64,000 nucleotides of DNA. It comes from Eledone cirrhosa. Lineage: Eukaryota. The translations under genes and the position numbers were made by a program. Within the stretch, counting starts at the first letter, position 1. Every line of letters starts with the position of its first letter. Below are positions 32,555-41,904 of the stretch, piece by piece. Location: positions 214,086,001 through 214,150,000 of the forward strand of contig OZ024743.1 of assembly GCA_964016885.1 (NCBI GenBank), in the 5' to 3' direction. The notes below the pieces were generated by a model. That model ran no database searches and was not told the DNA's origin. It worked only from the letters and a program-made list of their open reading frames with translations.

Positions 32555-34816
32555 ATATTGGTAAACGGAATAGAAAATGCAGACAAATTGTTCACAGTTG
32601 AAAAAATGGTTTAATTAGGCATAAAAGAGTATTAGTGATTGTATGGGTTAGTATTCAGTTGTGGTTTTAAGTTTTTAAGTTTTTACCGGTTGCGCATTTC
32701 TAAATGCTTTTCAAAAATAATTTTGAGATAGAGTGTCCGTGTTGTTTGCTCTGATCTGATTAGTTTTTGGAATTCTACCTGTTTTTATGTTAAAAAAGTG
32801 ACTCCAGCGTTACTTTTGTGTTGCAAAAATTCTTGTGGTCAAAACAATTTTGATTGATCGGTAGAGGTCATGTGAATGTAAAAAATTGATTTTGCGCCAA
32901 GACTGTTTTTATGTTAAAAAAGTGGCTCCAGCGCTATTTGGTGTTTGCAAAAATTCTTGTGGTCAAAACAATTTTGATTGGTCGGTAGAGGTCATGTAGA
33001 TAAAAAATTGGTTTTGCACCAAGATTGAGAAATGACTCTTTCACAACAAATATGTGTGTGCGTGTGTGTGTGTGTGTGTGTGTGTGTAGTAGTAGTAGTA
33101 AGGTGTTCGATGTTGTGATAATGGTTAGCAGGGATGTGTGTCAAATGGCTATTAAGATAAGTGTGTGTGTGTGTGTGTGTGTGTGTGTGTGTGTGTGTGT
33201 GTGTGTGTGTGTGTGTGTGTAGCTGAGTAATTCGTGGTAGCAGGGATGGTCAGTAAGAATGTGTCTGAAAGCAATGGGGGGTATTTTAGCATGTCAAAAG
33301 ATATTTTTCAGCTTTTGTCTTATACGGAGATAGACCCAACTGTGGCATTTGCATCAACCTAATAGAGGGTTCAGAATTTTATTTCAAAGATGGACAACGT
33401 TTTATAGTAAAACACAATTTCACATGTGCATCGGAAAATCTAATATATGTATTAACTTGTTCAGGTTGTCGAGAACAATACATAGGCCAGACCAAAAAAA
33501 GCCTCCGCCAATGCATGACTGTCCATAGATCCAAAATTAAAATACGGGAATACAAGAAAATACCACTGAGTGAACACATTGATACCTGTGACGCCCAAAA
33601 TCATCCCAACTTCAGAATCTTTCCCCTCTACAAATTTAAAGACAATGCCACCCACACCCATCGCATCAGCAAGGAATCTTACTTCATTAACAAATACGGA
33701 CCCCGTCTAAACACTTCTCGCTAAGACGAACCCACAACATACACACGTTAACATACATACCTATATCAGCACACATCTCCACCCACATATAAACACAATG
33801 ACATGCGTAAACACACATGCTCTATCGTGCAACACAGAAAAATATATGTGTATATGTATGTATATATATATATATATATATATATATATATATATATATA
33901 TATATATATATATATATATATATATATATATATGTATATATATATATATATATATATATATATATATATATAGTGAATATATGTATGTGTATGTATGTGT
34001 AGTGAATATCATTTTACACCTTTTATTGTTAAGATTTATTATGTTCTATTAAGAGAACCGATTTTACTGAAAAAATCGATAATGTACACCATTTTACCAG
34101 GGGGGAAAAATACTGGTCCACCCACACATACACACACACACACACATATATACACACACACATACACACGCGTACATTAACATACAAAGAGACTTATACA
34201 CACACACACACACACACACACGCACTTCTCCGTATAAGACAAAAGCTGAAAAATATCTTTTGACATGCTAAAATACCCCCCATTGCTTTCAAACACATTT
34301 TTACTGACCATCGCTGCTACCACGAATTACCCTGCTATACACACACACACACACACACACACACACACACATACACTTATCTTAATAGCGATTTGACATA
34401 CATCCCTGCTAACCATTATCACAACATCGAACAGCTTACTACTACTACACACACACACACACATATTTGTTGTGAAAGAGTCATTTCCCAATCTTGGCGC
34501 AAAACCAATTTTTTATCTACATGACCTCTACCGACCAATCAAAATTGTTTTGACCACAAGAATTTTTGCAACACCAAAGTAACGCTGGAGCCACTTTTTT
34601 AACATAAAAACAGGTAGAATTCCCAAAACTAATCAGATCAGAGCAAACAACACGGACACTCTATCTCAAACCACAACTGAATACTAACCCATACAATCAC
34701 TAATACTCTTTTATTCCTAATTAAACCATTTTTCAACTGTGAACAATTTGTCAGCATTTTCTATTCCGTTTACCAATATATAATAACTTGTGTGTTACAC
34801 CTCTATACTTTTAACT
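32555..34816 (+). mobile_element. PLE: inverted pLTR (32555-33330), GIY-YIG, 3' pLTR (34227-34780) plus tail
   Basis: Arms are reverse complements. The left arm has a ~120-bp tandem duplication (32785-33025). Confidence 0.85.
33331..33724 (+). pseudogene. PLE GIY-YIG endonuclease fragment
   Basis: CGICINL..FTCASENLIYVLTCSGCREQYIGQTKKSLRQCMTVHRS..KESYFI..P.LN. Confidence 0.85.
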
Positions 34817-34870
34817 ATATATATATATATATATATATATATATATATATATATATATATATATATATAT

Positions 34871-39225: not shown

Positions 39226-40120
39226 TCTATATATATAAAACTGTGGTTGTCTGTCTGTCTATCGATTTTTGGCACACATCTCCTCTTAGAATCTCTCACG
39301 TAATTGCACCGAAATTGCTATACTTGTACATTGAGCCCTAGCGAAGACATCGAAAAAAAAATATTTCAAATTGACCCACCCTATGTGACGAAATCGAATA
39401 TAATGTATCGATTTTTGAGCGTAAGTTATCAGTTATTTCCCTTTGTTCTGTTTACATTGAGCGTCTTACGTAAAAAATTACGAGCCAGCAAAATATTGAC
39501 CTGCAAAATTCATCAGTTCGAACACTAAGCTTCCGTTTTGCTTCATTTCCATTTGAAAGCATTTTAAAACAATATTTTTACTTGAAAACAAGTCTATTTA
39601 AAAACTACGTAAAACAAGCAAATATTTCGTCGTTAGGCGTGCAGACAGACAGTCGTGCAGACAGACAGTCGTGCAGAGAGGTGATATACGCGTGCAGACA
39701 GACAGTCGTGCAGAGAGGTGATATAGGCGTGCAGACAGATAGTCGTGCAGAGAGGTGATATAGGCGTGCAGACAGACAGTCGTGCAGAGAGGTGATATAG
39801 GCGTGCAGACAGACATAACTGATAATTTGGTTACGCTAATGTTTTTCTCTGCGTTGCAGTGTTTACATTTTCGATCTTTGTTAATAAATAACCAGTGCAG
39901 TTTCTATCCCCAGCATCCTCTTTTGTTATAACATTCGGGTTATCGTTATGTTTTCTTAACTTCATAAGGCATATTGTTGGTTGAGGGAATATTAATCAAA
40001 AACACCACATGCAAGTCTGCACAGTAGACACTACAGTTTTTAAGCCAAGACAGAAACTTAACATTGTAACTTTAACACAGCTACTGAGCGACCCCGAGCA
40101 ACGCCGGGCTTTACTGCTAG
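39226..40120 (+). mobile_element. Complete non-autonomous Helitron
   Basis: A|TC start, cccgagcaacgccggg hairpin, CTAG|T end, no TSD. The empty site is visible in the opposite arm at ~38890. Confidence 0.85.
39636..39815. repeat. ~37-bp minisatellite inside the Helitron (gtgcagacagacagtcgtgcagagaggtgatataggc)
   Basis: About 4.5 tandem units read directly. Confidence 0.9.
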
Positions 40121-41904
40121 TTGTCTATAAAAAATAAATTCCAAAATACGGGCGCGAGATTTAATGTACTTGTTCACGTGACAGTCATAATTTTATTTAT
40201 AACCAATCAAATTACATTTATAAAAATAAGACTTCGTGAGCCACCTTTTTTTTAAGTAAAAAGAAAATCAAACACAAACTGGCGCGAAAGCTGATGTGTT
40301 TATTCACGTGGCTGCATCACCCAACCAAACCTCACTCATATACAACAACCAGAGCACCCTCTTTGTTTTGAAGAACTTTGTAACGCGAACTGGCGCGAAA
40401 TTTATTATACTTATTTACCAACCAATCAAATTACTTCTTTACAAACCTGGCATTTCGAGCCACTTTTTTCCATACAAAACAAGTAACATTCAAAGACCAA
40501 CCAGATGTGAGAAAAATCACAGACCCTCCATCTCAACTGTACTTTTTAAAAGCAGAAGAACTGCGAAATTGGTAAAGGAACCAAATAAATATATATATAA
40601 AAAAAAAAGACTGCAGTTGCATTTTAGATTTCATCTTTTTTCCTCTTATATATATAAAATATATGGATGAGAAGAGTGCTGTGTGATTACTGATAACGGG
40701 TGTTAGAAGGTAAAGGGACACACACAAGAGGTAGACATTCCCCCCTCGTCAGTAGTTAACCACAGATCACGCATTATTAACTATAAATCTATTCGTAGCG
40801 CGCCCATAGCGTTTTATCTATCAAAAGACCGTGAGGGAGAGAAGATGTATAGTTAATAATGCGTCGAAACATCTGTAATCCGTAGTTAACTACTGATGAA
40901 GAGAGACTGTCCACCCGTTATATATCTATATCTTTATAACATAATTTGTAGGCCGGCCGTAATGTGAAGACGGACATCGGACATCATATTTATCAGGCTT
41001 GTACGTGTGTATATATATATATATATATATATATATATATATATATATATATATATATATATATATACACATATACAGACATACAGGCCAGATAAATATG
41101 ATGTTCGTATTCACGTTACGGCCGGTCGACAAATTATACATAGATTCTATTTGATGTGGTTGAATTTAGAAACGTATTTGTTTGCAAACTCAAAGCTCCA
41201 TGAAATATACATTGTATCTGCTGAAATCACATGCCATCAACAAAGAAAATGGAAACAAAATAACTAGTGACTGTTAGCAATAGTTTTGTATATTGAAAAG
41301 GAAACGATAAAATGCGTATTATTTTTAGTTAGTCACTATAAAATTTATAAAAATCTTCTTGGTCTCCATTTCTATTTTATGAACAAACATTTATTCATAT
41401 TCCTACGCAATTACTTTGGATTACCAATAAACTGTAATACTGTTTTTTTTTTATTAAGGTAAGGTTAATTTTTTATGTAGGTTTCAGAAATATAAAACAA
41501 ATGTATTTTCTATGGAAGTAATTTTATCTTGACAGTGTTTCGAATACATATATTTCGGTTTCCTAGGATACATTTGAAAAATACAAAAGCGTATATATAT
41601 ATTTTTTCTTTGTCATTGTCGTTTATTTCCAAAATAACAAAGAACATACAATAAAATTCCTATTCGTCTAGTATTTACTAATATAACATTCACATCAGTA
41701 GACAAGAAAAATAATATATATATATATATATATATATATATATATATATATATATATATGCATATATAAAATATTTCATGTGATTTAAAGCAGCTGTGAT
41801 AGAACAAATACACCGATGTATATATATATATAATAGTAATAATAATAATAATAATAGTAATAATGATAATAATAATAATAATAATAATAATAAGAAGAAG
41901 AAGA

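Follow-up and report, generated by a model that had tools for sequence, protein, structure and literature searches.

Three short motifs on the minus strand of a 64,000-nt stretch of the Eledone cirrhosa genome (contig OZ024743.1, positions 214,086,001 to 214,150,000; hereafter the window) resemble hammerhead ribozymes whose core reads UUGANAA in place of CUGANGA, so that the tertiary pair between positions 3 and 8 would be U3-A8 instead of C3-G8. The question raised by this locus is whether such cores are the normal state of a lineage of Penelope-like elements (PLEs) or the remains of decayed canonical ribozymes. Both intact motifs of a preliminary description, at 38431-38466 (-) (family A) and 32681-32717 (-) (family B), were recovered letter for letter; the degenerate third that it placed near 37310-37356 (-) is present, with U3 at 37351, and is a broken copy of a family (C) that is itself intact. 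We conclude, with a probability of roughly three in four, that these are minimal type I hammerhead motifs with a family-fixed U3-A8 pair, which Neptune-type PLEs of a single clade carry in their terminal repeats, and that the motifs likely cut the precursor RNA as a dimer.

U3-A8 Is Family-Fixed across Thousands of Copies

Motifs were counted as exact pattern matches in the animal's own 3.0 Gb genome, with reversed patterns as the control. With positions 3 and 8 left free, the motif A pattern has 11,788 matches and its reversal 0. Among these matches, all of them exact at the remaining 27 letters, 11,658 are U3-A8, 42 C3-A8, 23 U3-G8 and none C3-G8, the remaining 65 carrying other single changes. 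Every one of the 83 copies in which position 3 is not T (42 C, 22 G, 19 A) has A8, and every one of the 47 in which position 8 is not A (23 G, 14 C, 10 T) has T3. The motif B pattern gave 6,316 matches against 0 reversed, with T3 in 98, C3 in 2 and A8 in all of the first 100 listed, so that a Watson-Crick 3-8 pair is present in both families at these frequencies; T3, A8 and C13 also occur together in 29/29 family B loci found by the flank alone. In family C, U3-A8 was found in 20/24 loci, U3-U8 in one and no motif in three, the fuzzy search motif used for this family overlapping position 8.

The alternative named in the preliminary description was AT-biased decay, in which UUGANAA would arise by independent C>T and G>A changes in canonical CUGANGA copies. 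Genome and window are indeed AT-rich, and decayed copies do exist (40542-40577 and 37311-37354). However, none of the 11,788 family A matches is C3-G8, reversions of one position alone (42 and 23) are no commoner than other substitutions there (41 and 24), and canonical cores persist in the same genome in other families, where CTGANGA with an ATATAT loop III is abundant (50,853 matches versus 313 in the control). The consensus of the genomic copies is UUGANAA and not CUGAAGA, and single changes are not as common as the double change. We regard decay as refuted: families that run to thousands of copies carry U3-A8 as their regular state.

Stem Sequences Differ among Families while Pairing Is Kept

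The U3-A8/ACCGGT combination extends beyond the intact copies of families A and B, whose exclusion leaves 6,536 matches versus 235 in the control, some of them decayed A or B copies. Among the matches listed are family C, family D (stem II GATGG/CCATC), family E (GCAT/ATGC, with a T-A, A-T or T.T closing pair) and one family F locus. At least six families therefore have UUGANAA and ACCGGU in common, with stems II that are different and yet pair, which bears out the earlier statement that the double change and the ACCGGT stem III are shared while stem II varies. In seven representatives (A, B, C, D, E1, E2 and F) the first four pairs of stem II are formed in 27/28 positions at 31% identity, and the first two pairs of stem I in 14/14, the 30-nt flanks being 33-36% alike; neither pairing was specified by the search patterns. 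GAAA is kept in 6/7 of these representatives, family B having GCAA, and the type I order (stem I, core, stem II, GAAA, palindrome, UH, stem I) is found in families A, C, D, E and F. The ACCGGT palindrome is present in 7/7, being part of the search pattern for D-F. In one subfamily of A (L018, L019, L025, L028-L030, L062-L070), CACCTT stands for CTACTT before the core and stem I grows from three to four pairs.

Other combinations of core and loop are of different weight. Canonical CTGANGA cores with ACCGGT do not exceed background (175 versus 227 in the control) and include one small real family, to which no PLE open reading frame (ORF) could be tied. U3-A8 cores with a loop not starting in C gave 1,862 matches versus 1,084, and those listed are mostly decayed A copies and noise. 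A possible older U3-A8 family (G000:C1:23192228, which is L173:4829, and about ten further rows) combines stem II GTCACA/TGTGAC with a loop III that is AGATCT or AAGCTT-like; a PLE ORF was found near it in 0/14 loci (L166-L179).

Motifs in the Terminal Repeats of Penelope-like Elements

In upstream-extended loci of families A, B, D, E and F, the motifs lie downstream of the GIY-YIG endonuclease (EN) domain and on the strand of the PLE ORF. The protein P0001 (family B, locus L081) is an unbroken 774-residue reverse transcriptase (RT)-EN frame with matches to RVT_1 (PF00078, 6e-08) and GIY-YIG (PF01541, 1.7e-06), and contains the motifs DKG and GxKF as well as a CX4CxxC linker before GIY-YIG. 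By this linker we assign families A and B to the Neptune-type PLEs, an assignment to be read with the linker being common to Neptune and Nematis and the tree being built without named references. In full elements the ORF stands between two repeats, and the two motifs, 4.5-4.9 kb apart, are on one strand; direct motif pairs flank the ORF at distances of 4,805 nt in L126 (B), 4,497 nt in L094 (A) and 4,885 nt in L135 (D), and the predicted upstream cut of L126 is 192 nt ahead of its ATG. The proposal that a PLE lineage bears UUGANAA hammerhead motifs escaping CUGANGA descriptors is thus upheld by a family-fixed state and by PLE ORFs on the same strand. The preliminary description's wording, that the lineage uses them, goes further and implies cleavage, which is putative, most of all in family B with C13.

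Pseudo-long terminal repeat (pLTR) tandems, inverted truncated copies and a tail are all present, as in endonuclease-containing (EN+) PLEs. Close head-to-head motif pairs, which end in TA runs, fit what has been reported of PLEs, namely truncated copies in inverted orientation and tails (Craig et al., 2021, PMC8557442). A reading of these close inverted pairs as miniature inverted-repeat transposable elements was rejected: spacers vary, arm ends differ, and longer copies run into RT and GIY-YIG.

The 3-8 Pair among Related Elements

The outside sample comprised 120 loci, and the motif descriptor was applied to the plus strand; it found the motif in 35/120 (20 C3-G8, 13 U3-A8 and 2 U3-G8) and none in the other 85, many of which end before the repeat. 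Ten of the 13 outside U3-A8 loci come from one assembly. The RT tree was built from 43 rows (13 own and 30 outside), with one tblastn segment per locus and with four near-duplicates and L281 left out. The nine own U3-A8 rows form one clade (support 99/95) among C3-G8 relatives, and the four own ATATAT-type rows lie far from it. On the best tree the 3-8 state needs seven changes, with U3-A8 in at least four separate places. On this tree, then, relatives switch repeatedly between C3-G8 and U3-A8, in a direction and an exact number that are unsure because several rows are long and the root was not inferred. Loci L252 and L253 have U3-G8 in both repeats, and in L256:1390 a C3-A8 copy stands beside a U3-A8 copy; these are possible intermediates of the switch. 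The PLE RT relatives L262-L305 lie in contigs filed as bacterial metagenome-assembled genomes, likely as host contamination.

One could suppose that U3-A8 is tolerated only because a strong ACCGGU dimer helix makes up for the weaker core pair. In the own genome U3-A8 does go with ACCGGT (about 24,000 exact matches) and C3-G8 with ATATAT, C3-G8 with ACCGGT being at background, and the ACCGGU duplex is predicted at -8.3 kcal/mol versus -0.8 for the ATATAT type. However, this association rests on one clade. Outside loci combine U3-A8 with the weak ACGU (10 loci of one assembly and L281), AUCGAU and ACAUGU, and C3-G8 with ACCGGU (L196 and L205); furthermore, the U3-A8 families here have a second trait in common, as they are mostly without the bulged base after A9. 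We therefore consider such compensation quite unlikely, and an obligatory link between U3-A8 and ACCGGU was dropped, since outside loci combine them otherwise.

Family B Carries a Third Core Change

C13 is found in 6,270/6,316 family B matches, the other 46 being 10 A, 11 G and 25 T. G12-A13-A14-A15.1 is intact in families A, C, D, E and F and not in B, where C13 is a third fixed core change beside U3 and A8; the preliminary description had the letters of motif B right, including GCAA, and did not flag the A13C change that they contain. Mean pairwise identity, taken over up to 15 copies each, is 0.99 in B, 0.945 in A and 0.915 in C, and B is the youngest of the three. Since A13, listed among the core bases (Perreault et al., 2011, PMC3088659), is the consensus base replaced here, C13 would be expected to lower the activity of family B, and its hammerhead may be a weak or dead ribozyme inside a successful element. 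Literature searches for A13 mutations and A13C in the hammerhead core yielded no measured effect of A13C. We regard it as possible and yet doubtful that the U3/A8/C13 core has retained self-cleavage in an ACCGGU-linked dimer, which might depend on the protein of the element itself. An old family with a CTGAGGA core and GCAACCGGTA is maybe a second case of C13, here with C3-G8 (G000:C1:206914337 and 208637805; C2:76024475, 108568852 and 200271386).

A Model of Dimer Cleavage

We propose that a transcript across a tandem insertion would carry two ACCGGU palindromes, and that these would pair into a stem III which a single copy is unable to form. In such a dimer U3-A8 would take the place of C3-G8 as the tertiary pair. 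Cleavage after GUH would define the 5' terminus of the element RNA, and might require the element's protein. Cofolding predicts paired palindromes in window A, window B and C_L103. U3-A8 cores are active in vitro (Perreault et al., 2011), the minimal hammerhead of a Schistosoma PLE cleaves at a low level and as a dimer only (Cervera and De la Pena, 2014, PMC4209133), and cleavage by an Anolis PLE hammerhead is protein-assisted and needs the protein of the element (Frangieh et al., 2024, PMC11167929).

Several observations speak against the model. No hammerhead dimer was obtained by cofolding for families D and E2, nor for the decayed window C motif or the canonical control, and the best predicted fold of motif B, alone or paired, traps the UUGAA core in another hairpin. 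Stem I has only two to four pairs, C13 of family B falls on a listed core base, and the conservation of core and CCGG in families D-F is circular, because these families were found by that very pattern. A PLE ORF was found in 0/20 loci of family C, the motif of which is D-like. Furthermore, mutants of the Anolis hammerhead left in vitro insertion unchanged, with no RNA-seq reads ending at the site (Frangieh et al., 2024), and Naiad PLEs amplify without canonical hammerheads (Craig et al., 2021).

The competing fold in motif B and the dispensability of the Anolis hammerhead in vitro would suit a motif retained for its structure or for binding a protein, such as a dimerisation or RT-loading signal, with cleavage no longer needed and with U3-A8 and C13 tolerated since catalysis is under weak selection; so would C13 in nearly all matches of the youngest family, which has an unbroken RT-EN frame, and U3-G8 in both repeats of two outside loci. 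However, 33/35 outside motif loci have a Watson-Crick 3-8 pair, the other two having a wobble pair, U3-A8 stands in several separate places of the tree, and GAAA is kept in all but one of the own representatives. As the 3-8 pair is important for the active fold, its retention points to selection on catalysis. We consider a purely structural role unlikely and favor cleavage as a dimer.

A Putative -1 Frameshift in the Same Elements

In families A and B, the RT-EN frame lacks a start codon before its conserved beginning. Its overlap with the end of a preceding ORF falls at A TTTTTTA GA, in the register of a -1 slip. The upstream ORF of L126 has 436 codons and no Pfam match. The TTTTTTA junction occurs in six B and two A loci (Table 1), and six other own A, B or D matches, having broken frames, were not scored. 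Among outside loci, TTTTTTA is found in L186 (twice), L187, L190, L193 and L197 and TTTTTTG in L201 and L263, with RT-frame stops right before the slip site in L187, L190, L193 and L263; most of the more distant relatives are without a slip site. No downstream hairpin common to the slip sites was predicted (z from 1.4 to -2.8). The conserved U UUU UUA (or U UUU UUG) likely represents a programmed -1 frameshift and would give a gag-pol-like layout in EN+ PLEs. Such elements are described as single-ORF (Craig et al., 2021), from which A and B copies with an intact junction depart, ORF1 and RT-EN overlapping in the -1 frame; the legend to Fig. 1 of the same paper mentions an ORF1 separable by a frameshift with a pseudoknot in some PLE type. 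This layout is possibly more novel than the U3-A8 hammerheads themselves.

Copies in the Window

The window holds only truncated, inverted stubs, and a direct partner of the same family is absent; its copies are likely inert. No ORF remains in the family A 3' end, and the GUC triplet of its motif is a minority letter, GUA being found in most of 30 family A loci. The GIY-YIG end of the plus-strand family B copy (33329-33721) is 94.6% identical to residues 644-773 of P0001. In this copy about 55 nt holding the whole hammerhead are missing at 34668-34670, between short A runs, and its inverted partner keeps the motif. Four sequencing runs over 32570-33030 show no other letter in the family B motif above 10 in 100, bar a one-base loop indel, a read comparison that cannot show cleavage. 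The family C motif is broken in stem I, in stem II pair 2 and by G at position 17, the family state being TTGATAA, stem II GATG/CATC and GAAA CCGG TA. With Rfam covariance models, no hammerhead was found at E<=10 in 38400-38500, which gave two unrelated weak matches, nor among the 150 matches listed of 193 in the window, which are microsatellite-driven noise.

Table 1. Coordinates of the motifs and repeat copies in the window, and loci with the upstream ORF/RT-EN layout
Feature	Position	Strand	Details
Family B inverted 3'-end copy bearing the motif	32555..33330 (approx.)	-	blastn to L126
Family B hammerhead motif	32681..32717	-	TTT TTGAAAA GCATTTAGAAATGC GCAA CCGG TA AAA; U3 at 32714; A8; stem II GCATT/AATGC; G12-C13-A14-A15, C13 at 32692; ACCGGT; predicted cleavage site 32684/32683
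Family B 5'-truncated copy	33329..34870	+	GIY-YIG endonuclease end and 3' region
Family C repeat copy	37133..37683	-	82% to L103
Decayed family C hammerhead	37311..37354	-	TCA TTGATAA GCTGAGTTTTAATAATACATC GAAA CCGG TG ACA; U3 at 37351
Family A PLE 3' end	38300..39192 (approx.)	-	pLTR part and tail, TA run at end; blastn to L094, L080
Family A minimal type I hammerhead motif	38431..38466	-	CTT TTGAAAA GCAGAAGAACTGC GAAA CCGG TC AAG; stem I CTT/AAG; core U3 (38463) to A9; stem II GCAG/CTGC; GAAA; palindrome ACCGGT; predicted cleavage site 38434/38433
Inverted, 5'-truncated partner of the family A copy	40133..40650	+	84% to other arm
Decayed family A hammerhead, fourth window copy	40542..40577	+	G5>T; CCGG>TTGG
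L126 ORFs (positions in L126)	4704-6014 and 2809-4773	-	upstream ORF/RT-EN layout
Own loci with this layout beside L126			L081, L084, L086, L092, L052, L093, L096

The three ACCGGU motifs of different families (32714, 37351 and 38463) all lie on the minus strand inside 5.8 kb. Mixed dimers are conceivable in a transcript that reads through them, with a cross-family stem I of just two to three pairs. Between the family A arms, 39225-40125 is another repeat, 96% alike to the stretch adjoining family A in L080 and containing a 37-nt tandem array; the ends of this repeat resemble a Helentron-associated (DINE-1/HINE-like) element. Another PLE family (RT and GIY-YIG with a CxxC linker, about 31% to P0001) is present at 19300-25100 and 34870-36640, where it forms an inverted pair plus a second truncated copy. 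Canonical C3-G8 minimal hammerheads with an ATATAT palindrome, from other PLE families, are found at 9613-9661 (-), 18877-18925 (-), 2820-2873 (+), 50316-50369 (-) and 51680-51733 (+).

Relation to Known Hammerheads and Significance

The U3-A8 swap in PLE hammerheads is already known, and the families described here are further members, the preliminary description implying more novelty than this allows: the variant was published in 2014 for the Cercyon PLEs of Schistosoma, with about 1,300 matches (Cervera and De la Pena, 2014). The supplement to that paper gives the cores UUGAAAA and UUGAUAA for S. mansoni, CUGAAGA for S. japonicum and UUGAAGA for Saccoglossus. Our families are like the minimal hammerhead of S. 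mansoni Cercyon in type I order, U3-A8, palindromic loop III, short stem I and location in PLE terminal repeats, and also in that most copies are truncated singles or close opposite-strand pairs. They differ in their 6-nt palindrome ACCGGU, in mostly having no bulge after A9, in shorter stems II (4-6 pairs) and in copy number, which exceeds 20,000 here. C13 of family B is without counterpart in the consulted portions of the text and supplement.

Natural hammerheads with U3-A8 cores and 3-8 covariation have also been described (Perreault et al., 2011), in which a U10.1-U11.1 mismatch is tolerated, as in our family E2; unlike ours, these are stand-alone hammerheads with their own stem III, and the relevant section names no A13C variant. 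The elements themselves resemble the EN+ PLEs Neptune and Nematis in their RT, CX2-5CxxC linker and C-terminal GIY-YIG with CCHH, and in partial tandems, inverted 5'-truncated copies, tail and (TA)n insertion (Craig et al., 2021), but have a non-canonical core and, in place of one ORF, an RT-EN that follows the upstream ORF in the -1 frame. In Anolis Poseidon, where the 3-8 pair was tested by swap mutants, the hammerhead likewise lies in the pLTR near the ORF start, but with a C3-G8 core and with the start codon inside the ribozyme instead of downstream of it (Frangieh et al., 2024).

CUGANGA descriptors would miss the approximately 24,000 exact U3-A8 copies, a third of the hammerhead-like motifs counted when set against those of the canonical ATATAT type, and therefore PLE hammerhead censuses and calls of 'no hammerhead' are too low, a point already made in 2014 (Cervera and De la Pena, 2014). 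The present work adds copy counts that exclude decay, a tree with repeated 3-8 flips in PLEs, and sister families with A13 versus C13. If family B does cleave, it would provide an active hammerhead from nature in which the supposedly fixed A13 is missing; if it is instead dead, a young family of 6,000 copies beside its A13 sisters would be a natural test of whether PLEs need the ribozyme. Either way, the A13 and C13 sister families allow one to ask whether cleavage is needed, which has been called unclear (Craig et al., 2021).

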